Counted from the stretch's first letter, positions 40 to 23,947 are shown. The stretch is DNA of 64,000 nt from Candidatus Latescibacterota bacterium (GCA_965226795.1 CBDDDZ010000005.1:2336001-2400000), one strand, 5' to 3'. Translations and numbers: made by a program. The notes: generated by a model from the letters alone, not told the origin.

Positions 40-140
40 GGTTAACGGTTCTTGGCTTTACGACGTGGGCCAGTCCCAAAGGCCCATGTGCCCGCAGGGC
101 CGAGGGGCGGATGCCCCGAAGCGTAAAGCCGGTGTTAGCC
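40..140 (-). repeat. attC-like recombination site 1
   Basis: + strand GGTTAAC(40-46)...GTTAGCC(134-140); inner stem GGCTTTACG(54-62)/CGTAAAGCC(122-130); follows the 3' end of the PhyH gene. Confidence 0.8.
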
Positions 141-219
141 GTCGTTATTAATTCGTATCCGTTCATTGTCGGGGCCTTATGTATCAAAATGTAGCCGCTA
201 ACTCATTCAGACAGACTTC

Positions 220-1140
220 TCATTCACCAAAAAACGGGTACGGCTCGCCGGCTTCCACCAGCCTTTGTACCAGACTCGAGTACTTCAACACCTCCGTCAG
301 CCGGGCGCGCCAATGCGGGGCGTAGAAGCCGACGAATTCCTGGAAGAACGCTCGCGCATCCTCACTGACGCCATCGAAGTATTGCGGCAGCAAAAACCAT
401 GGCTGGTCACTGGCGTAGTTCAGCCCCCGCTGGCGCATCGCGAACTCTGCGGCGGCCCGTTTTTTTACCGAGATCATCAACGAGCGCCTGAGCTTGTCGG
501 TGTGATAGCGGCCCCGATGAATGCACAACTGGGTAAACAGCACCGCGTCACCGGGTTCCTGGTGGAGACGAACGGCGCCAGGCATATCGTTCGAGCGGTT
601 GTGGATCCCATCATCGGCGACGCAGATCGCGTGCTCTTCGGGGGAGTAGTCACGCAGGTGAGACCCCGGCACCACTTCGAGATCGTCGGTAGGGACCAAT
701 GCGATTTGCATCTGCAACCCGGCTCCGGTCTCCGGTCTCCGGGATACGTCTGCTTCTGCACCGATCTTGTCCTTGTGCCAAAATCCGTCCTGGCTTTCTC
801 CGGTCGGATTACAGTAGAGACTGCTCAAGGCGAAGAGGAATTCTTCATCCAAGGCTGCGCTCAGCGATTCGACAACTTGGGGCGACCCCATGGCATTGAG
901 CAGAAAGGCGAGATCGTCGGGGTGATCGCGGTGATATTCCGGGTCGTTCAGGTGCCTCATGTAATTGGCCTGGGGCCCCACCGGTGGATTGTCACAGCGA
1001 GGAGCGCGCCGCCACTGTTCCAGCACTCGCTCACAGATCTCGCGCAGCCGTTTTGTCGTCGCTGCGTCGAACAAACCGCGCACCACGGCGTAAGAGTGGT
1101 GGCGTAGCTGCCCAGGGCAGGGTTCAGTAGCAATACTCAT
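220..1140 (-). CDS. Phytanoyl-CoA dioxygenase (PhyH) family Fe(II)/2OG dioxygenase, cassette-borne
   Basis: WHKD (HxD), LEVVPGSH and PGDAVLF...HRG motifs; RBS GAGGA upstream. Confidence 0.85.
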   Translation of the reverse strand: MSIATEPCPGQLRHHSYAVVRGLFDAATTKRLREICERVLEQWRRAPRCDNPPVGPQANYMRHLNDPEYHRDHPDDLAFLLNAMGSPQVVESLSAALDEEFLFALSSLYCNPTGESQDGFWHKDKIGAEADVSRRPETGAGLQMQIALVPTDDLEVVPGSHLRDYSPEEHAICVADDGIHNRSNDMPGAVRLHQEPGDAVLFTQLCIHRGRYHTDKLRRSLMISVKKRAAAEFAMRQRGLNYASDQPWFLLPQYFDGVSEDARAFFQEFVGFYAPHWRARLTEVLKYSSLVQRLVEAGEPYPFFGE

Positions 1141-1251
1141 TATATCCTCTTGTGTTGCTGTAAGAATTGCGTCGCAATTGGACTGTAAAAGTGCGGACAG
1201 GCTGTCTCGTGCTGTCTAACTACGTATGGAAATCAATGCTCTATTAATTGC

Positions 1252-1335
1252 GGCTAACGTTTTCGCCGTGCCCGAACCGCGAAGCGGTTGCGCGAAGGGC
1301 CGTATGGCCCGTAGCCGGGCACGGACGTGTTATGT
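1252..1335 (-). repeat. attC-like site 2
   Basis: GGCTAAC...GTTATGT; stem CCGTGCCCG/CGGGCACGG; sub-hairpins AACCGC-GAA-GCGGTT and GGGCC-GTAT-GGCCC. Confidence 0.85.
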
Positions 1336-1454
1336 GTTGTGCCAGCCGGGGGGCGGGGGCGGCCTTGCCACGGATGGCAAGGCCGCTTTGTCGCTGAAAC
1401 AGAATTTCCGCTAAATGAATTATTCAGCGGAAATCTTGAAAGAAGAACGAGGGA

Positions 1455-1625
1455 TTATGTCTCCCGTTTCACCGATTCTTCTCTACTTTTCCGCACCAGC
1501 TTCTCAGGATGCTCTTTCTGGCGTCTTATGTAATACGCCACCAATTTCTCTGGGTCGTGATCACATTGCTCCGAAATCCTATGACGCACTTCACGAATCC
1601 TACGAATGGTCGGATCATCTTTCAT
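1455..1625 (-). CDS. 56-aa protein overlapping the PIN toxin stop; probable antitoxin (not in ORF track)
   Basis: Manual translation MKDDPTIRRIREVRHRISEQCDHDPEKLVAYYIRRQKEHPEKLVRKSREESVKRET*; start overlaps 3' end of PIN gene. Confidence 0.65.
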   Translation of the reverse strand: MKDDPTIRRIREVRHRISEQCDHDPEKLVAYYIRRQKEHPEKLVRKSREESVKRET

Positions 1626-2100
1626 CTTCAATATCTCCTAGGAGTTCCAGCGGAGTCACCAACGTGGGCACATATAAGCCAAGAATAGTGTTGACTCGCT
1701 TGATGTGGGCAAACTTATTCGCGTTAGCCAGATGATTGCAATTCCATGTGAGCAAAAATTCACACTTATGATAAGAGGCTGTCGCAAGATGGAGTGCATC
1801 GCCCAGGGGATCATTAGGCATCATCTGGTGTTGGATATATGCTTCTACAATCTCAGCGATTTCTCGTTCAATTGGCAGCAGTGGCAAAGGAGCAACCAGG
1901 GCCAATACTCGGTCCTTGTTAGGATACTCTCCTCCACTGAGTTCATCGATAACCGCTTCACTGGTGAAAATCTCATAACCCTCACGCCGTTCGTCCCACC
2001 ACTGGCGTGTCCAAGTCCGCTTTGCAGCCATCTCGGGTTCTGTACGTGTTTCGTAATAGAAACTGGGAATAGATATCTCGATGTAGACCTTAGGAATCAT
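1615..2100 (-). CDS. PIN-domain (VapC-like) toxin
   Basis: VYIE(T/I)SIPS start, SEAVIDEL, DALHLA, LLTWNCNHLAN PIN motifs. Confidence 0.85.
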   Translation of the reverse strand: MIPKVYIEISIPSFYYETRTEPEMAAKRTWTRQWWDERREGYEIFTSEAVIDELSGGEYPNKDRVLALVAPLPLLPIEREIAEIVEAYIQHQMMPNDPLGDALHLATASYHKCEFLLTWNCNHLANANKFAHIKRVNTILGLYVPTLVTPLELLGDIEDER

Positions 2101-2290
2101 TATATATCATATTGTTTTTAATATGGTAAAGACGGTTCAATTCTGCTGCGATTGGTCACCTATAGACCTGCTATAAATCTACATATCTTAATTAAGTTCT
2201 TCAAGCGAAATTTCCGCTACTGAAGAACGTAGTGAGATTCTCTTGGGCGGCCAGGACGGCCGCCTGCTTTTGGAGGAAGGCTGGCATGGC

Positions 2291-2378
2291 TTATAACGTT
2301 CCCGCGGGCTGCGAACCTGCGCCAGCAGGTTGCTGCGGAGGCCCGAAAGGGCCGGAGCCGCAGCCCGACGTGTTAGCT
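2291..2378 (-). repeat. attC-like site 3
   Basis: TTATAAC...GTTAGCT; stem CGGGCTGCG/CGCAGCCCG; very similar to site 12 (22980-23068). Confidence 0.88.
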
Positions 2379-2439
2379 GCAGTTGTCCCTAGCTAATGCG
2401 ATGCGTTAAGAATCTCGAAGTCGTCTTCAGTGTTTTTTA

Positions 2440-2979
2440 TTAAACGTTTTTGGTTGCCCGAATTCGAGCGAGTAAAACCGGAACCCAATGATCGCCGTAC
2501 CGAGTGCGAAGGATTGTTGACATCCAATCCTCTCCGGTAATCAGACCGCGGCACTCGGATGAATCACAATTGCAGTTCATCGCGAACTCAAAACTATCCG
2601 CCTGCGTGGCATAGTCTACTGAAATCTCTTCGTTTTTTAGTATGTCTCTCCGGGATTCCAGAGTGAAGGCATCAACGTGCCAAACAGTCGGATCACAGCT
2701 GTGATTCAAGAAATGGACTTGCTGTCTCGGTACAATGAACAGATCAAGACCTTCAGCAACGCTGATACTGTCAACGTAAGGCAGATCAGGGTTGCTTTCT
2801 CTTGCGGAGATCATCTTCAGCAGGTTATCTCGAGAGATAATCTCGCCGCCGAACTGCAGAATCCTCGTGCCGGCAGTGATTAAGGTCTCAGCGAAAAGAC
2901 CGGATCCCTCAATCTCGGATCTTCGGACTCCCACTTCGCTATGCAACCAACACTTCGATGGGGGTTGAGGTGTTTTCAC
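2440..2979 (-). CDS. SET-domain protein (putative lysine methyltransferase) with post-SET Cys cluster
   Basis: GSGLFA, FLNHSCDP, EEISVDY, CNCDSSEC. Confidence 0.9.
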   Translation of the reverse strand: MKTPQPPSKCWLHSEVGVRRSEIEGSGLFAETLITAGTRILQFGGEIISRDNLLKMISARESNPDLPYVDSISVAEGLDLFIVPRQQVHFLNHSCDPTVWHVDAFTLESRRDILKNEEISVDYATQADSFEFAMNCNCDSSECRGLITGEDWMSTILRTRYGDHWVPVLLARIRATKNV

Positions 2980-3008
2980 GTAGACATCGCGATCTCTGGG
3001 GCAATTGC

Positions 3009-3160
3009 AGATAACGTTCCCGGGCTATACGACGTTCCCCGGTCCGGCGAAGCCGGATTGGCGCGGCGCTTGCGTCTCTCAGCAAGCGACGTGACAAAGG
3101 GGAATGTGCCCGAAGGGCCGGAGGGAGCGAAGCGACCGGAGCGAATAGCCCGTGTTAGCA
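3009..3160 (-). repeat. attC-like site 4 (long, multi-branched)
   Basis: AGATAAC...GTTAGCA; stem CGGGCTAT/ATAGCCCG; sub-hairpins TCCGGC-GAA-GCCGGA and CGCTTGC/GCAAGCG. Confidence 0.85.
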
Positions 3161-3714
3161 GAAGTCGCATCGGGGTGGCGCCCCTCTCGGTCCTGGAGAT
3201 CGGGGCGTACATACAGCGTGCGACATAGGTTTGGTTCCTCTCATCTGATTGGGATGACCTGAGATCCGATTCGAAAAAATGGTTTAGCCCTAGGCAATAC
3301 CGAAGAGATCACGACATCTCTCCAAAACCTTCACGTCAGGACCAGCAAGGGCAGTGGCCCCTCCAAGCGGCACGCGAGCAAAGTGATCCCGAACTTAGCG
3401 GCATGCCCTCTGGGTAGGGGCGCAGCCTTCGGCATAGTCAAGTCATTAGCAAGTGAGCTTTTGGACAAGACGAAGGTGCATTCCGCCGGATATTCAGTTT
3501 TCTCCGTCGCCTTTTCGCCACTTCGATAGGTGTAAAAATCAAGCAACCGGTGTGACACAGGCCAATGTGTGGGTAGTGGTGTTGAGGTGGGTCCAGGAGC
3601 GCTTTATTTTGCGACGGCGCTCATGGCCCGACAATACAGATCTTCTACGTCGATGTCCGAGGCCGTCACTTCGGAGCACCACGCACGAAGTGTATGGGAG
3701 GCTCGATATGTTCG

Positions 3715-3834
3715 CTACGGCTCAAGTGATTCCTGATTGCGTTCCCGAATCCGCTTAGGTCTTCGAAATAAGAAATAGATAGAAGCACCAAGGACATTGG
3801 AGCCAAGAATTGTAATGCCCCAACCCAACTTCTG
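3715..3834 (-). pseudogene. C-terminal fragment of a PLDc_N-like small membrane protein
   Basis: Manual translation QKLGWGITILGSNVLGASIYFLFRRPKRIRERNQESLEP*; no start in frame. Confidence 0.45.
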
Positions 3835-4201
3835 CCCAGGCTACCACTGACATTGACGGGCGCCCAATGCCAGCAACAGCATGATGCGCTCGCAGGGGCA
3901 GATCAGAGACCCGAGGAAACGCGAGAAGACAGGACCAGGATGGCAACAAATGGTCAAGTCTCCCTTACGTGTCATATCTCTCTGAACGATACGTAAGGGG
4001 TCTCCTGATGTCAATGTGCCAGGGAGGAAACGCCGGCCGGGGATCAGGGCCTGTGGCGTCCGTTGCCAAGGGGTCGCGGCGGATCGGGCCTTCCGGCGCA
4101 TTGGGTGAATCACGTTGTGATTAGCCGGTTCCTGGGGACGTCGATTCCCCGAGTCGGCGAAGCGACGAATCCCGCAGATAAGTCCCGCAACGGGCGCATG
4201 C

Positions 4202-5578
4202 CTACCTGCTGAACGCGTCGGGCCTGCTGGAGTCCGAGGGCCAGTACCCGTCGCGGCTCGGGTGCCAGCGCTTGCCGCACAGGTCGGAGATCACGCTCCA
4301 TTCGGGGGCGCTCAGATCAGGGTCCGGCTGGAACAGGAAGCGCTGCAGGCCGGCCCGCTCGGAGGCGGTCAGGATGCCGTGCAGGTCGCGGGCGGTCATG
4401 GGCTCGCCCCCGTGCGGACGGCGCCCCGTCGACACCCAGGCGATCACCTTGTTCACATCCCCGATGGCCTCCAGCGCTCGGCGCGTCTCGTTGTACACCA
4501 GCTCCGAGTAGAACTCCTCGGGGAACCCCAGTTCCATGTCCGCCAGGGTCTGCACCCCGGGAAGCTCCAGCCCCAGGAAGGCCTTGACCACGGCGAAGCC
4601 GTCTGCCTCCAACAGGGTCGGGTTCCAGTCCAGGACCTGCTGCACCCAGCGGGCCATGGTGCCGTAGAGGCCGTCATTCCCGCGGTGCCAGAAGTAGTGC
4701 TTGGGGAAGACGTAGTCGAAGTACTCCGCCATCTCGCCAAATTCGTGCCCGGTCAGTGACGAGAAAGCGGCGGTGCGCGGAATGCCCCCCAGCTCCACCT
4801 TCCCTCCCACTCTCTGCATCTGCGCGTGCACGGCGCGCATGAACCCCCGCGCCGCTTCGCGGCGGGCGCGCAGCCAGTACAGGGCATCCTCGTTCAGGTC
4901 GAACAGGTTCAGTGCCCCCAGCATGCCGCCGGACGCGTGGTAGCGCACCAGATCCGGAGTCAGGTTGTGGAAACGCTCGTTCAGGTGCGCCATGCCGCGG
5001 GCGACGCGCTCCACATCGGCGCCGATGGCTTCCAGGCGGTGCCGCATGCGACCGTCCAGTTCCAGTAGGGCCTTACCCCGATGGAAGGCAAGTTCGTAGA
5101 AGGTCTCACCGGGCTGGTCCAGGATGACGCCGTGGGCCTGGGGATAGGCACTGGCCAGGTCGTGCACCCCGGCGGCCACCTCGATGGCCCCGAAAGGGTC
5201 CTCCTCCTCGGCTAGGCCGCTGGTGGTACCCTGGCCCCGCTGGTAGAGCAGCCGGAGCCCGTCTCTGGAGTCGAAGATCATGATGTGCCAGCCCCGGGAG
5301 GCGGCGTTGTCGAGGAGCGCGTGGAGCTGCTTCTCCCTCTCGGGGGTGCGGGCCGTTTCCGGGGGCGGCTTGATGCCGAACGCGGCGTACACCTTTGGGT
5401 CCGCCGCAAACGAGGGGGTGAGGGTGTCCCCCCACAACGGCATGCCGGCCTCGTTCCTGAGCCACATCCGTCCCACCACGATGCCGCCCACCCCTCCCGC
5501 CTCCCACGCGTCGAAGATGCGCGGGTAGTCGTCCAGCCAGTGCTCCAGGGGATTGTGCACGAAGATCCAGGGTACCAT
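4202..5578 (-). CDS. Hypothetical 458-aa protein, paralogue of 16927-18240
   Basis: Long high-GC ORF with RBS GAGGT; shares FPKHYFWHRG and AWVSTGRRPHGG blocks with the 437-aa ORF. Confidence 0.85.
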   Translation of the reverse strand: MVPWIFVHNPLEHWLDDYPRIFDAWEAGGVGGIVVGRMWLRNEAGMPLWGDTLTPSFAADPKVYAAFGIKPPPETARTPEREKQLHALLDNAASRGWHIMIFDSRDGLRLLYQRGQGTTSGLAEEEDPFGAIEVAAGVHDLASAYPQAHGVILDQPGETFYELAFHRGKALLELDGRMRHRLEAIGADVERVARGMAHLNERFHNLTPDLVRYHASGGMLGALNLFDLNEDALYWLRARREAARGFMRAVHAQMQRVGGKVELGGIPRTAAFSSLTGHEFGEMAEYFDYVFPKHYFWHRGNDGLYGTMARWVQQVLDWNPTLLEADGFAVVKAFLGLELPGVQTLADMELGFPEEFYSELVYNETRRALEAIGDVNKVIAWVSTGRRPHGGEPMTARDLHGILTASERAGLQRFLFQPDPDLSAPEWSVISDLCGKRWHPSRDGYWPSDSSRPDAFSR

Positions 5579-5598
5579 CGCGTCACCTCTCTCTGGGG

Positions 5599-5715
5599 TT
5601 ACCCCAGTTTAGTGGACGGTTCCTTAACTGCACATTCAATGAGCATCCACAGCCAGAAACCTATCATGCCCAAGAGGAGGACAAGCAGGATTTCCCAAAG
5701 ACCTATGCCGAACAT
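5599..5715 (-). pseudogene. N-terminal fragment of a PLDc_N-like small membrane protein
   Basis: MFGIGLWEILLVLLLGMIGFWLWMLIECAVKEPSTKLG*; RBS GGGAGG. Confidence 0.5.
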
Positions 5716-5906
5716 TCTCGCCTCCCTTGTTTTCGGTCAATCGAATGGTTGATAATTATCTCGAGCTTTGGATTTAGGGAAGATCTGACTCGGGATTTCT
5801 CCGCTGTCGCATAAATCCAAGTATAGGAACGAGTGTTGATGGTGGGGAGGGTGGGGCTATTTTTGCACGCAATCACGGTTCTTCTGGGGGTGGTGGGGGC
5901 GATTTC

Positions 5907-6040
5907 TGCTAACTACGGTATTACCGAACAGTTACGGTAATGCGTACCTGATCCGAAGATCTGCGAACGTTCGGGAACATTCCACGCTGAAGCTTGTAGC
6001 CCGAACATGTTCAGGAATGCTTCCTATGGTGGCATCGTCT
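5907..6040 (-). other. attI-like site, copy B
   Basis: Near-identical to 23814-23947; similarity stops at the TAAC (GTT core on minus strand). Confidence 0.75.
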
Positions 6041-6295
6041 CTAATCAAAAACTGCCTCCCTTTCTTCCATCAATGCATCCAGCGGGCTCTGGATTTTCGC
6101 GAGATCCCGATTCGTCACCCGAGTATAGATCTGTGTGGTCTTTGGGCTTACGTGCCCGAGCAACACCTGGATATATCGCAGGTCCGTCCCGCGTTCAAGC
6201 AGGTGTGTCGCAAAGGAATGCCGTAGCGTCGGTATCCGCTGGACAATTTTCGCTTTCTCGCAAGCCCAGTCAAACGCGGTCTGTACCGACCTCTC
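6041..6295 (-). pseudogene. Truncated second copy of the tyrosine recombinase C-terminus
   Basis: Nucleotide match to 23948-~24208; translates ...[38 protein letters not shown]...SPLDAL; a 6-nt deletion removes the His of HxxR. Confidence 0.9.
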
Positions 6296-6608
6296 CCTGT
6301 GCTATCGGATTTCGCCAACCCATTGCGCCCAAAAAACGGGAGCAACTTAGTCGTGAAACTGAAATCCCAAGTCTCAAATATCGCCACTCACTCGAACCGC
6401 ATCCATTCAACAATATCATCGAGAGCCTTGTCTTGATAGCTCACCGCGTCCTCCCGTCCTACAAAGCCATGAACAAAATCCGTGGAGGCAGTCGCCTTCC
6501 TTGGATCATCATTCCACACGTGATACTCCCTCAGCCCAATTACCGTCGTGGGCATACACATTATACGGGCTGACAATGCACTTGAAATCCAGCAGTATGC
6601 ATAGTTCG

Positions 6609-7136: not shown

Positions 7137-7219
7137 AGTCAACGATCTCACGGGCCGTGAACCTGCGAAGCAGGTTGGGGGACGGGCGTAAACCCGAAGG
7201 CGGGGGCACGGTGTTAGAC
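7137..7219 (-). repeat. attC-like site 5 (somewhat degenerate)
   Basis: AGTCAAC...GTTAGAC; AACCTGC-GAA-GCAGGTT sub-hairpin as in sites 3, 10 and 12. Confidence 0.7.
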
Positions 7220-7255
7220 CTCGGGCAGTTTCGGAGAATGTCCCTACACCTTGGC

Positions 7256-7654
7256 CTATACGAATACTGAGGGCGAGACGCCAAATCGCCTGGACAAAGC
7301 ACGTATCTGCCGGACGTTTAGCTCTCGCTTACCTTCCAGAATCTCAGAAACCACCCCTTGCGAACCCACCTCCGGCAAATCCGACTGGGTCAATTCATGC
7401 TCCTCGATGAGAAGCCGGAGCGGATCGGCGCCCTCCAACCTGGGCATGGAATGGTGTTGTTCTTCCCAAGCGTGGACAATGGTGCCCAACGTATCGAGCA
7501 GAGAATAAAGCGGATGCCGTTCATCAGTGCCTACTTCATCGATCAGGCTGTTGAGCCGCGCCAGGGCCAGGTCGTATTCCTGCTCATTCTGAATCTTGAG
7601 TAACGCACTCACTTGCGTCCAGGATCGCTGAAGCTGTGGGGTAATGACACTCAT
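7256..7654 (-). CDS. higA: HigA-type HTH antitoxin
   Basis: IQNEQEYD...LTQSDLPEVGSQGVVSEILEGKRELN; ATGA overlap with the toxin stop. Confidence 0.88.
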   Translation of the reverse strand: MSVITPQLQRSWTQVSALLKIQNEQEYDLALARLNSLIDEVGTDERHPLYSLLDTLGTIVHAWEEQHHSMPRLEGADPLRLLIEEHELTQSDLPEVGSQGVVSEILEGKRELNVRQIRALSRRFGVSPSVFV

Positions 7655-7938
7655 GTCCTCCATCCTCCACGGTCGTAGGCTTGGTGTGTAAGCACATGAC
7701 GGATGTATACTTTGCCCCGGTTGAAGTGTATAGATACAATAAGACGTTACTTGCTGCCGGCGATGTTGAACACAACGAATTCGCCGACCTTGTCGGCCGA
7801 AGGAAAGGTGTGGCGCAATGCCGCGAAACTCCCAAACTGAGTTTGCCGCATGATCTTGAACCAGCGACTCAGAGGCTTCTCGCTTTCGGGATGCCGTGCC
7901 CAAAACGCTCGGAGGGCTTTGCGTGAGATTACGTGCAC
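7651..7938 (-). pseudogene. higB: HigB toxin with an internal nonsense codon
   Basis: MHVISRKAL...VFNIAGSK*RLIVSIHFNRGKVYIRHVLTHQAYDRGGWRT*; TAA at 7747-7749 where Tyr is usual. Confidence 0.85.
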
Positions 7939-8029
7939 CTACATAATATATCGTAATAAGCGATATGCCGCAAATATCCTGCCCCGCGTCCCAATCCACG
8001 GGCCTGACTCGACGCCATTGCTGCCTTTC

Positions 8030-8129
8030 GTCTAACCTTCTGGCCACTCGCGCATCCGCGTAGCGGGTTGCCGAATGGCCGACGGAGCGTCGCGACAGCA
8101 GCGCTCCCCGATAGAGCGAAGCATTAGAG
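8030..8129 (-). repeat. attC-like site 6 (degenerate)
   Basis: GTCTAAC left end, CCGC-GTA-GCGG hairpin; right end reads ATTAGAG instead of GTTAGAG. Confidence 0.55.
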
Positions 8130-8176
8130 CGGCTGACCTTCAACGCACACCATTGGAATTTTGTCTCGCTCTGAAA

Positions 8177-8411: not shown

Positions 8412-8526
8412 GTCAAGACGACCCCAGGGGATCCCCGACGCATTGAATGCAAGCTGAGAATAGGATGGATTCCCGTGCTGTAACCTGGAAGGCTCATGTT
8501 GTCAGATTGGCTCGGAGTCTGATTGC

Positions 8527-15205: not shown

Positions 15206-15284
15206 TTGATTTTCAAGTTCTACCCCTCAAGCTTTTCGTCCGTAACGGGTGGAATTGAACGCAAGAAACTTAATTGAAACAGTA

Positions 15285-15935
15285 CTAAGTTTGCATAAGC
15301 TCATGGATCAGCGGTGGGACCTGACGGATATCGGTCAGTTGCCGCAGGGCACCGGTGAAGTCCAGGCCGCGCGTCAGGCCCTGCGGTATGACGATGCAGC
15401 GCAGCCCGGCCGCCAGTGCGGCGCGCAGCCCCCGGTCCGAGTCTTCGATTACGACGCATTCGGCGGCGCTAAGGCCGTTTTGCCGCATAGCCGTGAGGTA
15501 GGGCTCGGGGTCGGGCTTGGAATGCCGGTAGTCTTCTTGCACGAGCGTGAAATCGATGCAGTCCAGCAGGCCGGTGGCGGCGTGGATGATCTCAAAGTGC
15601 TCCCGCCGCGAACTGGTGACGATGCCCATGCGCACCGTGCCGTGGAGTTGGCGCAGCACTTGGCGGGCGCCGTCGATGACGGGTACACCGGCGCGCAAGA
15701 GTTCGGTGTAGCGGGCGTTGCGCCAGATGCGGGCGGGCTCCAGCGCCTGTTCGTCTATGCGGTGTTCGGCGGCGAACCTGGTAAGGCCATCGCTGGCCTT
15801 GAGGAAGAGCTCGATAAAACGGGCTTCGCTCAGGCGGACGCCGAGGGGTTCCAGGGTTTCGCGGCAGGCCTGGAAGTACAGGCCTTCGGTGTCGACCAGG
15901 ACGCCGTCGTTGTCCCAAAGAATGGCTTTCAGCAT
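15285..15935 (-). CDS. HAD-IA family phosphatase
   Basis: WDNDGVLVDTE, SKPDPEPY, IEDSDRG. Confidence 0.92.
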   Translation of the reverse strand: MLKAILWDNDGVLVDTEGLYFQACRETLEPLGVRLSEARFIELFLKASDGLTRFAAEHRIDEQALEPARIWRNARYTELLRAGVPVIDGARQVLRQLHGTVRMGIVTSSRREHFEIIHAATGLLDCIDFTLVQEDYRHSKPDPEPYLTAMRQNGLSAAECVVIEDSDRGLRAALAAGLRCIVIPQGLTRGLDFTGALRQLTDIRQVPPLIHELMQT

Positions 15936-15962
15936 GGCGCTTTATTTCCTTTTCGCCGCTTC

Positions 15963-15980
15963 GCATAACGGCCTGTTAAC
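15963..15980 (-). repeat. Truncated attC-like half-site at the start of the HAD cassette
   Basis: CGCCGCTTCGCATAACGG resembles the left ends of sites 1 and 12 (GCGCCGCTTTCG..TAAC); no matching hairpin follows. Confidence 0.5.
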
Positions 15981-16050
15981 CGCTGGCAGCCCCATCACGG
16001 CGAAGCCTATCACGGGCAGAGATAAAGCGCGCACCATCAGGCTTCTGATT

Positions 16051-16812
16051 CTACATGACCGGCCTGAATCTGGTTTGAAGAATCCTTTGGGCTGACAACT
16101 CACCAAAAGGCGCACCACAACACCTGACATCCTCCACAACCTTGTGGTAATCGTAACTCAATCGGTGATTTTCCACATGCCATTCCTGCCCATCCCACCA
16201 CACTCTGGCATATCCAGCTCGATGATCCCCGTCAAACGGAAACCCAACTGAATCAATGATGCTATACCGCTGACCGCACGGAACGCCACAGGCCGCATAG
16301 TGCAGGTGTCCCGCCACAATCAGATTGGCCTCCGCATCCCCCAGCAGTGTCCTGGCCTCCTCTTCTGGCGTAACGGTCAGAAGCCTGAACGGATCCTGAT
16401 CAGGTTGAAGAACCAAAAAACCGGCCACATCAGTAGGCGTTGCGTGCACAATGAGAAGATCATCCTCCGGAGACTGCCCTCCCGGTGGCGTTATCCTGTA
16501 CTCAAAGGGCAGACCCTTCAGATAGCTCAAGCCATCTGTTCCCAGCTTCTCTCTCACCCAGTCCAGTCTTTCCCCGGAATGCTGTTCATCAAAGACCAAC
16601 AGGTCTGCGTTCCCGTAAATCGTGGGAGCGCCCAGATTTCGTATCGCGTCAAGACTCTCGACCGGGCGGGGTCCGTTCAGCACCAGGTCGCCGGCGACCA
16701 CCAGACGATCATAGGGTTGGCTTTGCAGATCCTCAAGAACAGCGTTGAGTGCAGCGACGTTGCCGTGAATATCTGCAATTACCGCAACTGAGTATGACGG
16801 GGAATCATTCAT
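16051..16812 (-). CDS. Metallophosphoesterase (YfcE/calcineurin-like)
   Basis: ADIHGN, AGDLV, GNAD, VHAT, GHLH. Confidence 0.9.
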   Translation of the reverse strand: MNDSPSYSVAVIADIHGNVAALNAVLEDLQSQPYDRLVVAGDLVLNGPRPVESLDAIRNLGAPTIYGNADLLVFDEQHSGERLDWVREKLGTDGLSYLKGLPFEYRITPPGGQSPEDDLLIVHATPTDVAGFLVLQPDQDPFRLLTVTPEEEARTLLGDAEANLIVAGHLHYAACGVPCGQRYSIIDSVGFPFDGDHRAGYARVWWDGQEWHVENHRLSYDYHKVVEDVRCCGAPFGELSAQRILQTRFRPVM

Positions 16813-16926
16813 TTCACATCTCCAAAATTTCGAGGTGGCGGGCAGTGGTTCTTGCGCGCCTTCAGTTTTTGCCGCTTATCGTTCGCGCCCGCGGGAAACC
16901 CTCCCGCAACGAGTCAGAGATCTTGC

Positions 16927-18240
16927 TCATATTCGGCCCCCTTCGGGTACCTCGCGCCCGCCGTCCCAGACGCCTGGCTTGTCGGTCCCCGTCGGCCAGT
17001 ACCCGTCGGCGTCTTCATCCCATTGGTTTCCGCACAGCGACGAGATGATGGTCCATTCCGCCGCCCCGAAATCCGGCTCGGGATGGTATAGGAAGCGCTT
17101 CAACCCCGCCTCCTGCGAAGCAGTCAGGATGCCGTAGAGATCGCGCGCCTGCATCGGGTCGCCGCCGTGGGGGCGGCGCCCCGTGGACACCCAGGCTATC
17201 ACCTTGTCGGGATCACCTATGGCCGCCAGGGCCCGCCGAGTCTCGTTGTAGACCACCTTGGAGAAGAATTCGTCGGGGAAACCCATCTCCATGTCCATAA
17301 GCGAGTTGATGCCAGGCAGCTCGATGCCCAACAGCGCCTTCACTACGGCGAAACACTCCGCCTCGCTCAGGGACGGATTCCACTTTCGCAATCGTCTTAC
17401 CCAGCGGGATATGGTTCCGTACATGCCGTCCATGCCGCGGTGCCAAAAATAGTGTTTCGGAAAGATATAGTCGAAATACTCCGCCATCTGACAGTAATTC
17501 TGTCCGGTGAGCGATGACCACGTCACGGCCCGCGGGATACCGCCCAACTCCACCTTGCGATCGACGGCGTCGACCTGTTGCCGCATGTACTGCCAGTCGA
17601 AGCGAGAGCGCTCCTGACGCTTGCGCAGCCAGTAGAGCACGTCCTCGTTGACGTCGAACAGGAGCATTGCCCCCAGCATCCCCCCGTCGGCGTGGTACCG
17701 CACCATTTCCGGTGTCAGATTGTGCAAACGCTCCCGAAAGTGGGTGATGCCGCGTTGTATTCGATCAATCTCGGCGCCGACCTGGGCGAAGCGGCCCTCC
17801 TCACCCGGACGGATCTCCAGGAGTTCGCCCCCGTGGTGGAAGGCAAGCTCGTAGTGGTTTTCGCCCGGACCGTCGACAATGACGCCGTGCACCTGCGGAA
17901 AGGCGTTCATTAGGTCCTGCACGTGGGCGGTCGGGCCGCCTCCGGCGAAAATCAGTAGTCGCCAGCCCCGCTCCGCGGCGTTGTCCAGCATTGCGTGCAG
18001 CTTCTTCTCTTTTGAGAGGTCGCGCGGACGCTGCTCCGGGACTTCCGCCCCCAGGGCCTCGTACACCTTCGGGTCGGGAGCCCACGCCGGAATGGTGGTG
18101 CCATCCTCCTGGAGGAATGCCATGCGGCCGACGGCCAGACCGCGCACGCCACCATCCGCCCAGGCGTCGAACCGCTCCTCGAACCCGTCGAGCCAGTGTT
18201 CGAACGGGCTGTCACTGCAGGTGAATACCCAGAGTTTCAT
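16927..18240 (-). CDS. Hypothetical 437-aa protein, paralogue of 4202-5578
   Basis: RBS GGAGG; starts 34 bp after attC-like site 9; conserved blocks shared with the paralogue. Confidence 0.85.
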   Translation of the reverse strand: MKLWVFTCSDSPFEHWLDGFEERFDAWADGGVRGLAVGRMAFLQEDGTTIPAWAPDPKVYEALGAEVPEQRPRDLSKEKKLHAMLDNAAERGWRLLIFAGGGPTAHVQDLMNAFPQVHGVIVDGPGENHYELAFHHGGELLEIRPGEEGRFAQVGAEIDRIQRGITHFRERLHNLTPEMVRYHADGGMLGAMLLFDVNEDVLYWLRKRQERSRFDWQYMRQQVDAVDRKVELGGIPRAVTWSSLTGQNYCQMAEYFDYIFPKHYFWHRGMDGMYGTISRWVRRLRKWNPSLSEAECFAVVKALLGIELPGINSLMDMEMGFPDEFFSKVVYNETRRALAAIGDPDKVIAWVSTGRRPHGGDPMQARDLYGILTASQEAGLKRFLYHPEPDFGAAEWTIISSLCGNQWDEDADGYWPTGTDKPGVWDGGREVPEGGRI

Positions 18241-18273
18241 TTTTCCCTCCTTTGGGGTAAAAGGGGCGATTTC

Positions 18274-18377
18274 CGTTAACGGCCTCGCGATACCCGACGT
18301 TGCCGGAGCGTAGCGGAGGTAATGTGCCCGGAGGGCCGAATGACCGAAGGGAGTGTAGCGGGCATCGCGTGTTAAGC
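18274..18377 (-). repeat. attC-like site 9
   Basis: CGTTAAC...GTTAAGC; stem CGCGATACCCG/CGGGCATCGCG. Confidence 0.85.
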
Positions 18378-18512
18378 GTCCGTGTTGTTTTTTGTCATCA
18401 GGAATGGAATAAAGGAGCGGACATCACTTTCTCTGTTTTTCCGGTTTTTCTGCTTTTCAACAAGAAGATTACTGTTGTACCGATTCCTCGCCAGATAGCA
18501 ACTTACGGAGGT

Positions 18513-18947
18513 CTATGTTGATATATTCGATACGCAGTCGAAACCAACGGATCGACACTGAATCTGAATTGTACCTTCCAACAGAATCTCCCTGTGCTCG
18601 TCCTTCCTCTCGTTCTGCCAGTATCGTCGCGCCCGCTCGAACATCGATTGAAGGGTTTCGAATTCTTCGAAGTAACTTATCAGGTTCATATCAGCAGCGA
18701 ACGCGCGCGAGCATTCAAGAATCTCGATATCATACAGTTCGCACGCTTCCCTATGGGAGTCGAATCGTCTGGCAGCACTCGCTTCTGGCCAGAGAAACAG
18801 GCAATCAAACCGACTTGGCCTATGGGGAAATTCCCGTAGACGAACAGTCTCCCACGCGAGTTCCATCATGACACGACCTGTCTCGGCGGCATTTGGAACC
18901 GTTACCGCGAGAGAGTCCGCTTGGACTTCGATCAGGATCTGACGCAT
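18513..18947 (-). CDS. Hypothetical protein, DUF2441-like, 5' end probably disrupted
   Basis: ELAWETVRLREFPHRPSRFDCLFL and ARRYW...EILLEG pattern. Confidence 0.5.
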   Translation of the reverse strand: MRQILIEVQADSLAVTVPNAAETGRVMMELAWETVRLREFPHRPSRFDCLFLWPEASAARRFDSHREACELYDIEILECSRAFAADMNLISYFEEFETLQSMFERARRYWQNERKDEHREILLEGTIQIQCRSVGFDCVSNIST

Positions 18948-19094
18948 TAAATGGGTCTGGAAGTCTCCAGGTCTTACAACGGCTCCAGAGCGAAGGCCAG
19001 ACTTCGCCGACCAAAGCAGGTGAGTTCCTGGACCAATATGTTGTAGAGCCCGTGCTCGCTGGCTCGGCGTCCATCCAGAACCCCGTCGAAATTC

Positions 19095-19345
19095 TCACTC
19101 ACAGAACTGAAATGCGTAGAGCTTCGCGTCGCGCATGATGAAGCGTATCCTGACCGGTTGGCCGGCGAGTTGGCGAAGGTCGCCAGCGGGCCACGAAACG
19201 GGCAGCCTGACGGAATTGCCGACGTGCCATATTGAATCTGCGCCACTATACCCCTCAAGCGGACTTCCGTCTTCGGCGAGTAGTTCAACGCGCACGCTGC
19301 CTCCGGCGGCTGTGTCGACATTGAGTTCGAGGCGCGATCCGTAAT
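19095..19345 (-). pseudogene. C-terminal fragment of a GH-like protein related to 10461-11905
   Basis: LELNVDTAAGGSVRVELL...IRFIMRDAKLYAFQF resembles LWINADATGGSLRVEI...KVYLDRAKLFALY. Confidence 0.6.
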
Positions 19346-20442
19346 TCGCCGGTGTTGGCGAATCGGCTGTGGTACTGGCACAGCACTCGGTCCGGTCGAT
19401 CCGCCCGTTTGCCGGCTAGTTCGGGCATCAGCGACACGCCGCCCAGGTCCTCCGGCGTATCGAGTTCGGCCATGTCCATAAACGTCGGATAAAGGTCTAC
19501 CAGGGACACCAGCGCATCGACCTCGTGCCCCGCGCGTACATCCGGGCCGGCGACGATCAGCGGCACGCGAGCGGACGCCTCGTACATCGCGTTTTTCAGA
19601 TGTTGGCGATGTTCCATATTCATCTCGCCGTGATCGCTGGCGAACAGTACATAGGTGCTGTCCATCAGCCCGAGCCGATCGACCGTGGCCATCACCTCAC
19701 CTACCATTTCGTCGACTTCCGTCACCATCGCGAAATACGTGCGCCGCACCGCGCGAATTTCGTCTTCGGTGAACGGATCGGCGCAACCCTTGGTCGCGCA
19801 CATGTAGTCCACCACGGGATGCAGATGGGCCTCATACGGTGGAATGGTCACTGCGTCGGGGTCAATTCTGTCGAGATAGTATTGCGAGGAGACGAAAGCG
19901 GGGTGCGGACAATCCAAACTGCAGTGCAGGATGAAGGGCCGGTCGCCCGCCTGGCGCGTCTCCAGGTAGGCGATGGTGTCCTCGACCTTAGCCCAGTCGC
20001 GCTGGTGTACGCGACGCTCATCCGTTGCGACGTGCTTCAGGCCCGGAAGCGGTCCGGTGCTGCGCGATAGCCGGATGTTGGCCGCGCGGGTCCAGGACGA
20101 TATTCGATTGTGCAGTGAATGGCGGCCTGACAGGTAATCCGTCTTGCCGTAGGCCTGGTGGATATAGCCCGCGTCCTCCAGGTCGGAGACATAGGTTCGC
20201 TCGTCCGGCTCGAGCCCCTTATAATTGTTCCATCCTTCGATGACGTGGGTGTGTTTGCCGCTCCAGCGACTGGAGCGCGACGGGCAACACTGGGGAGAGC
20301 TGCAATAGGTGTTGCGGAACAGAGCGCCGCGCTCCGCCAGATGGTCCAGGTGCGGCGTCTTCACCGCCGGATGGCCGACGCACCCCATCGCGCGCCCGTC
20401 CATGCTGTCGCATTCGATGAACAGGATGTTCCGCTTGCTCAT
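19285..20442 (-). pseudogene. Sulfatase (choline-sulfatase/ARSK-like), C-terminally truncated and fused
   Basis: NILFIECD, CCPSRS (CxPxR), SDHGE, RVPLIV; ends abruptly in an unrelated fragment. Confidence 0.8.
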
Positions 20443-21034
20443 GGCGTCGTCGGTGCGTCCTCGCTCGGATCCCAGATGGTCGCCGCGATGTGCTGCTGGG
20501 GATTCTCGGCGCTATTGAAGTAGTAGATCGTCACGAGCTTACCGTCCGGTCGTACGACCATGCGCGGATAACCCATGTCTCCGTACTGCGCCCCGTCACG
20601 GATCGCGATCTCTTCACCCCACTGGGTCCCGTCAGGGGACGTGAATCGGGCGCGTATCCCGCTCTGTTTGCCTGCCCGGTAGCCGTAGCCGCACACGAGG
20701 CGTCCGTCGGCGAGGCGGACCAAAGCCGGCGGATTGCCGTTGGAGGGGAGGTCGGGCGGGTGGGTGGCGGCGACCTTGCCCAAGAAGCGCCAGGAGACGC
20801 CGCCATATTATAGCTGGCCGCTTCTTCCCGCTGCCAGCTCTCGCCCCCGTCGCGGCTGCGCGAAAGGGCTGGGAAGGATGGTTGCTCACCACTGATTCGG
20901 TGGCCCTGTTCCTTGAACTCGTAGTCGCCGTTCGTATAGCCAACGACGATCTCGTCCGCCCAGCTCCATACCCCGTCGTTGGCCGGCCAGCCCAGGAATC
21001 GGCCTTCCTCTCCGGCTACGATAATATGCTTCAT
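20439..21034 (-). pseudogene. Sialidase/BNR-repeat protein with internal deletion and frameshift
   Basis: SRDGGESW, GNPPALVRLADGR, DMGYP motifs split over two frames near 20805. Confidence 0.7.
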
Positions 21035-21085
21035 GAGACGACCTTCATGATGGCGTACAATGTTCGGATCTTCTTTCCTCATTTC

Positions 21086-21176
21086 ATCTAACGTTTTCAC
21101 GGTTTACGAACCTGCGTAGCAGGTTGCCAAAGGCCAAGCCGCCGTAGGCGGCGAAGCGTAAACCGCTGTGTTAGAT
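21086..21176 (-). repeat. attC-like site 10
   Basis: TTCATCTAAC...GTTAGATGAA perfectly complementary; stem CGGTTTACG/CGTAAACCG; two GTA-loop hairpins. Confidence 0.9.
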
Positions 21177-21273
21177 GAAGTGGGATCTAAGCCAATGCCA
21201 AACACGCATAGATTACCGCCAGGGCTCAGCCGAGCCGTCCTCGGCGTCAGCTGCAGCCCTTGATTCGCCGGTG

Positions 21274-21741
21274 TTACTCAGGCCGCAAGTTCACTCTGTA
21301 CCGACACGTCGGCCCGAATTCTCCTGGCTCCCGTTCGGTTTCGATGGTGTCGACATACTCTGCGCCGATCAACTCACATGTTCTCCTGGATGCGAGATTA
21401 TCGGATCGGGAAGTGATTAACACCGAGTTGATCCCATGGCGCAGGGCAAGGGGAAACAGCAGGCGACAGCTGCGGGCAGCGTATCTGTTCCCGCGATATT
21501 CGTCGTCCACGTCGTGGCTCAGATTTCCTCCATACTGCTCGAGCCTTTCCGTGCACCGCGTTCTGAGGCGGATACTGCCGATCTTCACGTCGCTGCCAAT
21601 AAGCCGCATCTCGAAACGGTACTCCGGCACCCGTCCCGTGTCAGGATCAGATGGAAGCGTCTCGGTGAGGACGAGCTCAAGGTCTCCGTCGACCAAGTGT
21701 CCTGGATCGTGGAATTCACACTCGGAATTCTTTCGGGTCAT
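21274..21741 (-). CDS. GNAT family acetyltransferase
   Basis: IGSIRLR, GGNLSH, EYRGNRYA, DNLASRRTCE. Confidence 0.85.
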   Translation of the reverse strand: MTRKNSECEFHDPGHLVDGDLELVLTETLPSDPDTGRVPEYRFEMRLIGSDVKIGSIRLRTRCTERLEQYGGNLSHDVDDEYRGNRYAARSCRLLFPLALRHGINSVLITSRSDNLASRRTCELIGAEYVDTIETEREPGEFGPTCRYRVNLRPE

Positions 21742-21845
21742 CCGGTATTCTCTGCGGCCAACTTGTGATTGAACGGCGAATATGCAGTATATCTCCAGAA
21801 TATCGGGAGATACACTGCAAGACCCGACTTTACTTTTCCCATTTC

Positions 21846-21989
21846 ATCTAACGGTCAAGCACCCACGAACCTGCCCAGCTGGCACGGCGCTTGCCCCTCA
21901 CGATTCTCATCAAGCAAGCGCCCGTGACAGCGCCAGGCAGGTTCCGCGAAGGGGCGCAAGCCCCGAAGCCGGGGGTGCCGTTGTTAGCC
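21846..21989 (-). repeat. attC-like site 11
   Basis: ATCTAAC...GTTAGCC; GAACCTGCC/GGCAGGTTC, GGCGCTTGC/GCAAGCGCC, GGGGC-GCAA-GCCCC. Confidence 0.85.
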
Positions 21990-22079
21990 GATGCGGCGCG
22001 CCCCGGGTCCAGGCGCAGCCCTCAAAATGGGTCAGTCTAGCGCACACCATACACGGCCCCGCTTGGTTTTTCCTGACTC

Positions 22080-22883
22080 TCAATTGAGAAAGCTGATAAT
22101 CTCCACAGCTGATACGGAGACTACTCCGTGGTCATTGGTGACGTCACAAAATAGCATCTCCTGCTCGTTCAAAGAGGCCCTTTGGATAATTCGCCTGGCG
22201 GTGTCACAAACGACGGAACCGCCAAGAACACGGCCTTCAGGTATTGGGGTGACCTGGGAAACATAGTTGGACTGGATGACCGGCACATTGAACAATCCTG
22301 TAATCGCTTTCGCCCCCTCTCCGCACCCGTCTCGGGTCATCTCGCCATCCTGGTTCCTTTTGCTCGTCGCGACACTTGGCCACAGAATCACGTCGCTGTC
22401 CTCTAATCCTCGGCCTACCACGTGATCCAGAAAACTCGATTCGGCGCAGAAGACAGAGCCAAAAAGAATACCGTGGATGTCTACAGGAGACCGCTCCTCC
22501 GACTCTACAAAACCCCATAGTTTCTTCCAAGCCTCGATCAAGAATGTCCTGGAGCCAGCAAGTACCGGTCCTTCCCCCGGCTGCAGTAGCAACAGCGCAT
22601 TGAGGAATCCTCTCTTCGAGAGAAAGGGCGAGCCAACCAGTGTGTAAACTTCAATTTCTTGGGTAACCATGCTCAGCTCTTCCAAGCTCGTCTCGATTTG
22701 GCCGTACCAATCAGGCTCTTTGAAGAATTCGTGTAAGTGTTGATCATACCCGGTCAGCATCATCTCTGGGAAAACTATCAGCTCAGCCTCATGGGATGCC
22801 GCCCTTTGCATCCACGCTTCAACAGTCGCGGTATTTTCTTCAACTGTTGCCGACATTGCGGGTTGCATTGAACAGACTCTCAT
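22080..22883 (-). CDS. Carbon-nitrogen hydrolase (nitrilase superfamily)
   Basis: LIVFPEMMLTGY, FCAE, GGSVV; start MRVCSMQ. Confidence 0.85.
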   Translation of the reverse strand: MRVCSMQPAMSATVEENTATVEAWMQRAASHEAELIVFPEMMLTGYDQHLHEFFKEPDWYGQIETSLEELSMVTQEIEVYTLVGSPFLSKRGFLNALLLLQPGEGPVLAGSRTFLIEAWKKLWGFVESEERSPVDIHGILFGSVFCAESSFLDHVVGRGLEDSDVILWPSVATSKRNQDGEMTRDGCGEGAKAITGLFNVPVIQSNYVSQVTPIPEGRVLGGSVVCDTARRIIQRASLNEQEMLFCDVTNDHGVVSVSAVEIISFLN

Positions 22884-22979
22884 TTGATTTCTGGAAAAGT
22901 AGGGCTGAGGGGTGTCATGGTCTTGCTTTTGTGCTCCGTAACCTGGGTTGGGAGGGGTTCCGTATTCTGCGCCGCTTTC

Positions 22980-23068
22980 GCCTAACGTTCTCGCGGGCTG
23001 CGAACCTGGCGAAGCCAGGTTGCTGCGGAGGCGCGTATGCGCCGAAGCCGCAGCCCGTCGTGTTACAC
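22980..23068 (-). repeat. attC-like site 12 (closes the first cassette)
   Basis: GCCTAAC...GTTACAC; stem CGGGCTGCG/CGCAGCCCG; CCTGGC-GAA-GCCAGG. Confidence 0.9.
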
Positions 23069-23226
23069 GCTTGCGGCGCGCCCCTTCCACGGCGACGCCC
23101 GCAACGGGCTGTATTAAGTGCACACCATAAACGATGTTTTCTGGTTTTTCGTCCTGTTTCTCAGGTCAATCGGAGGCCCATCAATAGCACCAAGAAAACA
23201 CATATCTCCCGAGTTAACTTCGCCCA

Positions 23227-23721
23227 TTAAAGGGGATTCGCCTTTATGAGTTGGAAGAGGTCGCCTTTCCTGGGGCGTTCGGATGTCAAAATCTCCATCA
23301 ATCTTGCCAGGACGTCAGCCCGGTCGAAACGCTTGAATTCTGGGTACAGCCCGATACGCCAATGGAGATAACCTTCAAGCTGTTTCGGATCTGTGAAAAT
23401 CTGTTTGGCCGCCAGAAACTCTGCTTGTAAGGCACGCCGATGTGCATAGGCATGTGAGCGTGAGGCCAACTTGTGTTGAATTTCCACATGCTCGTGTAGA
23501 GCAAACAAACGCGCATACTGCTCGTTCAATTCGATTAGGTCTTCTGGGATGTAAATCGTCCCTGCTTCGTCGTAGAAAGCCAGATCGGGTGTATCGGCTT
23601 CACACCGAAACACCGCATAAGAGATGGGCGTGTCAGCTACGACTGCCTGCTCGGTGCGGATGACTGACTGCTCAATAGCATCGAACAACTCAGTGGCTTC
23701 CGGGTGTGGCAATCGGAGCAT
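23227..23721 (-). CDS. Hypothetical protein in the first cassette, HExxE motif
   Basis: ORF fills the cassette; TIYIPEDL...ALHEHVE; alternative start 23799. Confidence 0.65.
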   Translation of the reverse strand: MLRLPHPEATELFDAIEQSVIRTEQAVVADTPISYAVFRCEADTPDLAFYDEAGTIYIPEDLIELNEQYARLFALHEHVEIQHKLASRSHAYAHRRALQAEFLAAKQIFTDPKQLEGYLHWRIGLYPEFKRFDRADVLARLMEILTSERPRKGDLFQLIKANPL

Positions 23722-23813
23722 AGGTATGGCTCTCGGGTGGGGTGTGTTCAGGGTTTTTGCTTTTTGTGCACGATCTGCAGGGTGGGGTGGTTGGGCCATC
23801 CTGCGCCGCTTGC

Positions 23814-23947
23814 GTGTAACTATGGTATTACCGAACCGTTACGGTAATGCGGGCCAGATCGGAGAATTCCCGAACGTTCGGGAACATTCCACGCTGAAGC
23901 TTGTAGCCCAAACATGTTCAGGAATGCTTCCTATGGTGGCATCGTCT
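23814..23947 (-). other. attI-like primary recombination site, copy A
   Basis: GTTACAC core on minus strand; conserved with 5907-6040; contains ATTACCG/CGGTAAT IR and 18-bp palindrome TTCCCGAACGTTCGGGAA (23867-23884). Confidence 0.8.

Follow-up and report, generated by a model that had tools for sequence, protein, structure and literature searches.

Cassette ends that pair beyond the R box in a probable chromosomal integron of Candidatus Latescibacterota

How far does the complementarity between the two ends of an integron cassette reach, and in which state of the cassette would it matter? The question is raised by a window of 64,000 nucleotides (G000:C5:2336001-2400000) from the 5.4-Mb genome of a Candidatus Latescibacterota bacterium, in which an integron-type cassette array runs on the minus strand from about position 23820 leftwards. 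The first-pass annotation, made from the sequence alone, had claimed that each intact cassette of this array has its own extended complementary ends, that the outer stem so formed reaches past the 7-bp R box of the attC recombination site, and that it would favour folding in the excised cassette circle over folding in the array. We find that the region is probably a chromosomal integron of the Latescibacterota and that the cognate ends of its cassettes probably form, in the free cassette, an outer part of the attC hairpin that is longer than the 7-bp box. The mechanism proposed earlier is the best reading of the data; the end pairing itself is a known cassette property, which takes an exaggerated form here, specific to this clade.

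Sites of attC type were called with a sequence-only model (R1), which was built from the 11 attC sites of the window and supplemented by hand curation, and adjacent attC or attI sites delimited 26 cassettes in the genome. For these we compared two sequences: D, which begins at the G of R' on the top strand and so gives the start of the next cassette, and rcU, obtained by reverse-complementing the stretch up to and including the AAC of a cassette's own R''. Both ends belong to one cassette, so the pairing of D and rcU is independent of which strand is named top. In permutations preserving column composition, ungapped identity of cognate ends exceeded that of non-cognate ends at positions 5-7 (1.77 versus 0.96, p = 5e-5), 8-20 (5.88 versus 4.18, p = 5e-5) and 13-20 (3.27 versus 2.16, p = 1.5e-4). 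Two-strand duplex energies over 22-nt arms were -11.2 kcal/mol for cognate and -6.6 +/- 2.6 kcal/mol for non-cognate ends (p = 5e-5), and the cognate duplex was the best of both its row and its column in 10 of 26 cases. X-drop extension reached at least 8 positions in 13 of 26 cognate and 64 of 650 non-cognate pairs, and at least 14 positions in 9 of 26 and 2 of 650, respectively. Shuffled ends are not as good as cognate ones, in this genome or in its relatives, and the outer stem past the R box is upheld at positions 8-20. The extension sequences vary from cassette to cassette in both, and this diversity points to covariation and not to one repeated motif.

In the window, the claim of extended ends rested on eight end pairs, all of which read as written, with duplex energies from -10.9 to -23.2 kcal/mol.

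23062-23820, minus strand: cassette 1, with an open reading frame (ORF) at 23227-23799; end pairing spans 18 positions and includes an AA/TT mismatch at 10-11; duplex -23.2 kcal/mol
21983-22986, minus strand: cassette 2, with a CN-hydrolase-like ORF; ends pair with one 1-nt indel, outer helix GCGGCGC; duplex -17.4 kcal/mol
21170-21852, minus strand: cassette 3, with a GNAT-like ORF at 21274-21741; ends pair over 15-16 positions, sole difference A/G at 11
7213-8036, minus strand: cassette with a HigB-like toxin ORF at 7747-7938; ends pair over 7 bp, a 4-nt internal loop and a 5-bp outer helix; duplex -10.9 kcal/mol
3154-5913, minus strand: first cassette of a second array, with an ORF at 4202-5578 (no Pfam family); ends pair over 15 positions, sole difference A/G at 11
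2372-3015, minus strand: cassette with a SET-domain ORF; end pairing spans 18 positions, 3 of them mismatched
1329-2297, minus strand: cassette with a PIN-domain ORF; ends pair over 5 bp, 6 nt with A/G and C/T differences, and an 8-bp outer helix TGCCAGCC
134-1258, minus strand: cassette with a PhyH-like ORF at 220-1140; ends share 8 bp, a bulge and ATTAAT

The right end at 8036 lies at a degenerate attC with no model match and no recognisable R''.

The closest public relatives of the window are Candidatus Latescibacterota metagenome-assembled genome (MAG) chromosomes. Loci encoding relatives of the recombinase at the head of the array contained 31 R1 matches, all downstream of the recombinase gene and on its strand. 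Five of the 21 neighbouring-site pairs were dropped (one duplicate and four sharing an end with this genome), which left 16 cassettes from four genomes. Here, too, cognate ends surpassed shuffled ones at positions 8-12 (p = 1.4e-4), 8-20 (p = 4e-4) and 13-20 (p = 0.028), and 6 of 16 cognate and 1 of 240 non-cognate pairs extended over at least 14 positions. The first cassette behind the intact recombinase gene at locus L013 pairs, by eye, over 18 positions with A/G differences at 8 and 11.

Positions 8 and 11 are conserved within the extension. In this genome, 23 of 26 starts (D) and 24 of 26 R'' sides (rcU) have G at position 8, as do 15 of 16 starts and 16 of 16 R'' sides of the relatives. 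Position 11 is A in the starts (24/26 here, 14/16 in relatives) and G on the R'' sides (21/26 and 13/16), and position 12 is T or G at both ends of the 26 cassettes of this genome. Because position 11 is nearly always A at the start and G on the R'' side, perfect runs in the Latescibacterota sets reach a maximum of 10. On the ORF-bearing strand the position-11 pair is mismatched as A.C; on the bottom strand it is a G.T wobble, at a distance of eleven bases from where cleavage presumably occurs. A start codon ATG at 11-13 was considered as the cause of the conserved A11 and rejected, with G at position 13 in just 7 of 26 starts.

End pairing past the R box is a known integron property, and the finding is real and only partly new. 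Passages of Bouvier et al. 2009 (PLoS Genet, PMC2727003) state that most cassettes pair beyond 7 nt, over 9-11 consecutive nt, and cite Rowe-Magnus 2003 and Sundstrom 1991 for this length; the other integron texts searched define only the 7-bp core. For comparison we used 20 distinct class 1 cassettes as found in 11 plasmid records (aadA, aadB, dfrA, catB, blaOXA, arr-3, qacL and others). Cognate identity was raised at positions 8-12 (2.65 versus 1.35, p = 2e-5), with no signal at positions 13-20 (1.90 versus 1.91, p = 0.54). Perfect runs spanned 4-13 positions (8-13 in 15 of 20, exactly 12 in five, none longer than 13). Extension over at least 8 positions was found in 16 of the 20, and over at least 14 in none; in the Latescibacterota sets, 15 of 42 cassettes reach that length (Fisher p = 0.0013). 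The as-is pairs of the aadA16 and aac(6')-Ib cassettes, which have rearranged 5' ends, scored low; the inner attI-like junction of aac(6')-Ib matches at 12 of 12 positions.

The sites described here resemble canonical attC in their R'' (...TAAC) and R' (GTTA...), in a hairpin that is predicted to be imperfect, with one base bulged out and a spacer left unpaired, in a G|TT boundary, in having the cassette's own start as the partner of R'', and in pairing over more than 7 nt, which past the R box is cognate-specific in class 1 cassettes as well. They differ in their perfect runs of at most 10, the A/G at position 11, the conserved G:C at position 8, and, in 15 of 42 cassettes, a further helix with which the stem reaches 14-20 positions, whereas the class 1 extension ends by position 13 and conserves neither G8 nor A/G11. 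The novelty claimed for the extended ends accordingly shrinks: the stretch up to about 12-13 bp is shared with class 1 cassettes, 9-11 nt are already given by Bouvier et al., and the distinctive features here are the second helix beyond position 11, which carries the part beyond position 13, and the fixed G8 and A/G11. The part beyond position 13 and the conserved position-11 mismatch are not covered in those passages of Bouvier et al. 2009. In the class 1 cassettes aadA1/aadA22, aadA2, aadA5 and aadB (L005, L008, L011, L036), ATG lies at 11-13 from the G of GTT, within the stretch that pairs with R''.

Core sites of tyrosine recombinases, such as XerC/D dif and Cre loxP, have binding arms of about 11-13 bp. 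The end of the class 1 extension, 12-13 bp from the cleavage point, is the length expected for the arm of one monomer. While dif and loxP are ordinary duplexes, an attC arm exists only in the folded single strand, with one half swapped at each recombination. The limit of 12-13 bp in class 1, set against 14-20 bp and a fixed mismatch in the Latescibacterota, suggests that the arm length is tuned to the recombinase.

Are the units truly mobile cassettes? Judged by sequence comparison, they behave as cassettes, as first proposed, with a boundary inside GTT. The PhyH cassette (134-1258) has a different attC upstream of it in loci L012 and L019, with identity beginning at GTTAGCC, and the cassette start GTTAGCGGACATCG... 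was found behind two different attC sites within the genome. The attI alignment of six loci, each with attI beside the integrase gene, is conserved up to ...CCGTA GTTA, the crossover, and then diverges into six unrelated cassette starts. Arrays of ORF-plus-attC cassettes in one orientation are present in the window and in its relatives; in the window, all substantial array ORFs are on the minus strand, the orientation of the attC sites. Recombinase gene, a 127-bp attI segment and the first cassette, which starts G|TTACAC (23821/23820), follow one another on this strand, and a second attI copy lies further left.

23948-25083, minus strand: integron-associated tyrosine recombinase gene, frameshifted (PF13495 and PF00589; N-terminal part about 25083-24760, catalytic part 24796-23948)
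23821-23947, minus strand: attI-A, from the recombinase stop codon to the first cassette; crossover ...CCATA G|TTACAC with the G at 23821, placed by the six-locus alignment
5914-6300, minus strand: second attI copy (5914 to about 6040) with the truncated 3' end of a recombinase gene (about 86 last codons, one TAG inside)

This second copy with its recombinase fragment joins two arrays head to tail, and the array that it heads continues leftwards past the window to about C5:2318230. Similar recombinase gene fragments lie inside arrays of relatives (L017, L020, L021 and L024, four loci on one chromosome).

The state in which the arms would pair was examined by folding the bottom strand of each attC (DNA parameters, 22-nt arms) in its array form, in its circular form and with 32 non-cognate starts per site. 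The mean predicted minimum free energy (MFE) was -32.8 kcal/mol for the circle, -28.5 kcal/mol for the array and -28.4 kcal/mol for the non-cognate controls. Circle and array differed clearly (Wilcoxon p = 7e-4, n = 25), and in 10 of 25 cassettes the circle folded better than every control. The predicted pair probability of the R-box C:G was 0.51 in the circle versus 0.19 in the array. Among the eight window cassettes, the two arms formed 12-18 pairs with each other in the MFE structure of the circle, where they stack on the R box, and 0-16 in that of the array, with high array counts where neighbouring cassettes have similar ends. Circle and array counts were 15 and 0 for both 21983-22986 and 3154-5913, 12 and 0 for 7213-8036, and 16 and 8 for 134-1258; the circles of 23062-23820 and 1329-2297 had 16 and 18 pairs. 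These predictions support the earlier proposal that the cassette circle is favoured over the array for attC folding.

A mechanism consistent with these patterns would start from a crossover between the G and the TT of the R' box. Given this crossover, the first bases of a cassette (TTAnnn onward) would be the true partner of its own R'', and the two would be rejoined only on excision as a circle. The extended R arm could then stabilise the weakest part of the fold, the R box beside the unpaired spacer, and could give the recombinase monomer at the cleavage site a complete arm of duplex. The R' half of a site in the array would come from the neighbouring cassette, and pairing there would be mostly confined to conserved positions (GTTA, G8 and the position-11 wobble), so that the in-array site would fold less well and folding would be biased toward the integration substrate. 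The bottom strand is presumably the one that is folded and cut, the extension may have been selected for folding or binding, and it may affect the rate of integration relative to excision. The pairing is a general property of cassettes and is exaggerated in this clade, in which about one third of them add a second helix beyond the position-11 mismatch. Taken as it stands, the finding shows quantitatively that the attC at work in a free cassette exceeds in length the 7-bp box of definitions and detection models, and that the in-array site is a weaker hybrid. Both points are relevant to what determines the rates of integration and excision, and to the recognition of cassette boundaries and of attC sites that have been lost, as non-matching ends flag fused or decayed cassettes.

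An alternative, which we regard as unlikely, is that the complementarity is a relic of origin: attC would have arisen or been copied as a contiguous long palindromic module, genes would have been captured between its arms, and the inherited complementarity would not yet have been eroded. Consistent with this, end families span unrelated ORFs (GCGGCGC in at least four cassettes, GTTAGATGAAATG in two), the group with GCGGCGC ends shares a conserved module, about 40-60 nt long, that precedes R'', and extension lengths ranging from 5 to 20 are not expected from a fixed protein footprint. However, the start of an excised circle comes from the upstream site, and cognate matching would thus need both sites to have been copied from one module. 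The class 1 extensions, moreover, stop sharply at 12-13 positions (5 of 20 at exactly 12), which resembles a functional limit, and diverse extensions covary in two independent cassette sets.

Far less probable is that the ends pair in RNA, with the 5' leader and 3' trailer of the cassette transcript bracketing the ORF and affecting its stability, processing or translation. The arms do lie in non-coding leader and trailer sequence, as in cassette 1 (23800-23820 before the ATG at 23799, and 23062-23080 after the stop at 23227), yet the nearly invariant difference at position 11 would be mismatched (A.C) in the sense RNA, whereas the other strand has a G.T wobble there; the stem also runs directly into the R box of the recombination site, and the partners would be 0.6-2.7 kb apart in the RNA. 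That there is no cassette-specific signal at all, only a family-wide end consensus (GTTAnnnG..A/G) or chance, is refuted here: part of the match is shared (G8 at most ends, T/G at 12) and 64 of 650 non-cognate pairs reach at least 8 positions, but the cognate excess persists under composition-preserving permutation (p = 5e-5) and in extensions of at least 14 positions (9/26 versus 2/650), and it is replicated in the relatives.

Several observations weigh against the reading of the cognate ends as an outer part of the attC hairpin in the free cassette. Half of the adjacency-defined cassettes (13 of 26) have no extension of at least 8 positions, so that the effect is not universal; the statement that each intact cassette has its own extended ends is fair for the window. 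Among the non-extending cassettes are three long, visibly decayed units of the window, whose ends match no further than GTTA.

18371-21092, minus strand: multi-ORF unit (DUF2441, sulfatase and unknown ORFs); ends non-matching
14664-18280, minus strand: multi-ORF unit with degenerate attC remnants; ends non-matching
8677-14580, minus strand: decayed multi-ORF unit with transposase-like fragments; ends non-matching

The others lie to the left of the window; two of these are very short, at 305 and 531 bp, and several measure 1.35-2.5 kb. Lost or overlooked attC sites, rearrangement or decay may account for the non-extending units. Given its non-matching ends, unit 18371-21092 has probably lost internal attC sites. 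Contigs of four public runs, compared with the window, show strain variants and insertions. Position 21182 adjoins 19040 in contigs from X17 and X1; with its sides of 28-32 letters, this joint hints weakly at a lost attC. The contig joints 18286>21169 and 21182>19040, with sides of 22-32 letters, are hints only. The end families common to several cassettes (GCGGCGC and GTTAGATGAAATG), together with the conserved 3' module, fit common descent and selection equally well. The strand asymmetry to be expected if the bottom strand alone mattered is weak, as the bottom-strand arm duplex is only 0.66 kcal/mol more stable than the top-strand one (bottom minus top -0.66 kcal/mol, p = 0.045), and wobbles outside position 11 show no clear strand bias (bottom-type 20 versus top-type 13 in cognate, 702 versus 542 in non-cognate pairs). 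The class 1 sample is small, includes related cassettes and is the whole of the canonical comparison, and all attC calls depend on a model that was trained on the window itself and on curation by hand. Finally, the local recombinase gene is frameshifted, and nothing would therefore be moving here now.

The attC-like sites of the window have the top-strand form ...CTAAC-A-CG...stem...CG-RRAAC-GTTA...

22980-23068, minus strand: attC of cassette 1 (model R1, 64.6 bits)
21846-21989, minus strand: attC of cassette 2, long and branched (model match)
21086-21176, minus strand: attC of cassette 3 (model match)
18274-18377, minus strand: attC (model match)
14574-14670, minus strand: attC (model match)
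8527-8683, minus strand: attC, long
7137-7219, minus strand: attC (model match)
3009-3160, minus strand: attC, long (model match)
2291-2378, minus strand: attC (model match)
1252-1335, minus strand: attC (model match)
40-140, minus strand: attC (model match)

RNAalifold gave no consensus pairs for a MAFFT alignment of the window sites, and R1 therefore scores sequence only. It has 32 matches genome-wide, 29 of which are on one strand of C5 in three clusters. In the attC alignment, TAAC and CGTT are invariant and GTTA is present in 24-26 of 26 ends; the full R-box consensus (R'' RYYYAAC, R' GTTRRRY) is merely loosely followed. Predicted bottom-strand folds have a 4-nt unpaired stretch past the R box in the 5' arm and a single bulge in the 3' arm, and the canonical G/T extrahelical bases were not identified in them. 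Other means of detection served less well. The count of GTTRRRY in the window was uninformative (81 found versus 96 expected), and an energy-only finder chose long spurious stretches. Generic genome scans for matching AAC...GTT arms were too unspecific, yet added the site C5:2332090-2332214. A density-filtered finder fitted most class 1 sites, several missed ones being placed by eye and by short motifs; on the loci of relatives it found no sites in L013, L015, L016, L018 and L023 and one in L022. The attC behind the L013 integrase was missed by R1 and located by eye. Just upstream of R'' in several cassettes lies a module of about 40-60 nt that ends GGGGCGCGCCGCA..TAAC and contains the palindrome GGCGCGCC (minus strand 21983-22110 and 23062-23240 in the window; L001 16208-16360).

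What kind of recombinase would use these sites? The only intact gene seen, at L013 (9680-10810), encodes 376 aa, of which residues 1-107 match the first and 108-369 the second frame of the window gene. The best PDB match of the recombinase is IntI4 (2a3v, E = 4e-41), from which it differs by the absence of about 42 aa at the IntI-specific region (2a3v chain residues 171-239 opposite 27 residues). Canonical IntI uses this I2 'additional domain' to read the extrahelical bases. Aligned with IntI1 by BLASTP, the recombinase is 31% identical, and 48 gap positions fall at the insertion. The window recombinase matched the integron-integrase model TIGR02249 in two pieces (105.9 and 99.5 bits), leaving model positions 175-234 unmatched, and the intact relative scored 214.2 bits (cut-off 265; IntI1 control 508.6) and, against NF040815, 215.7 bits (cut-off 220). 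By the standard of IntegronFinder-type searches, an IntI with the additional domain near patch III, the recombinase would not count as an integron integrase. It has an N-terminal extension of about 100 aa without a Pfam family. No gene in this genome passes TIGR02249, and among 30 relatives only one does, in another genus (G017) and with no R1 match nearby.

The conserved module of recombinase gene, attI and array, present in at least six loci, nevertheless argues, on sequence grounds, that the recombinase serves an integron. In 'inverted integrase' chromosomal integrons, e.g. of Treponema, the integrase gene has the orientation of the cassettes. The locus described here is like them in that recombinase, attI and cassettes share one strand and the array follows the 3' end of the recombinase gene, and unlike them in that its recombinase fails the integron-integrase model and is without the IntI-specific insertion. 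As a tentative and somewhat doubtful idea, the Latescibacterota integrons may use a different kind of integrase, a XerA/IntI-like tyrosine recombinase of 376 aa that lacks I2 and has about 100 aa of additional N-terminal domain. A longer R arm, with G:C at position 8 and a fixed wobble or mismatch at position 11, one helical turn from cleavage, may then assume some of the work of recognising the site or choosing the strand. If true, the extended ends would define a second, unrecognised type of integron platform, which current tools would file as an integrase-less attC cluster (CALIN). A recombinase-attI-array module without the IntI-specific region would widen the definition of the integron and could explain some 'integrase-less' clusters. 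Judged by titles and the openings of abstracts, a literature search returned no paper linking Latescibacterota with an integron structure.

Many phyla have homologues of similar length, in large numbers, and some of these carry the NCBI name 'site-specific tyrosine recombinase/integron integrase'. A homologue on a Persicobacter megaplasmid (Bacteroidota, 45.8% identity) is part of repeated recombinase modules without an array and was judged to belong to a different system. The L030 locus (7504-10960; G017:C1:2493504-2496960) holds a tandem of three tyrosine-recombinase genes on the same strand, the first of which passes the integron-integrase model with 464.5 bits. The trio is repeated elsewhere in the G017 genome and resembles a recombinase-in-trio element.

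Near-identical DNA to the window is present in sponge-metagenome runs. Contigs of three public runs skip 11931-13336 (1406 bases with transposase-like ORF fragments); their lack of this segment, together with the transposase-like fragments, points to an insertion here that other strains lack. At 19342/19343, contigs of three runs contain 1532 extra letters in or beside the sulfatase gene region, a strain difference. Toxin-antitoxin-type genes, which are common in chromosomal integrons, are represented in the array by the HigB-like toxin (7256-7938, minus strand) and the PIN-domain protein (1615-2100, minus strand). Just outside the integron, the plus strand at 26409-28535 encodes a DNA polymerase of family B that has exonuclease and RNase-H-like domains.

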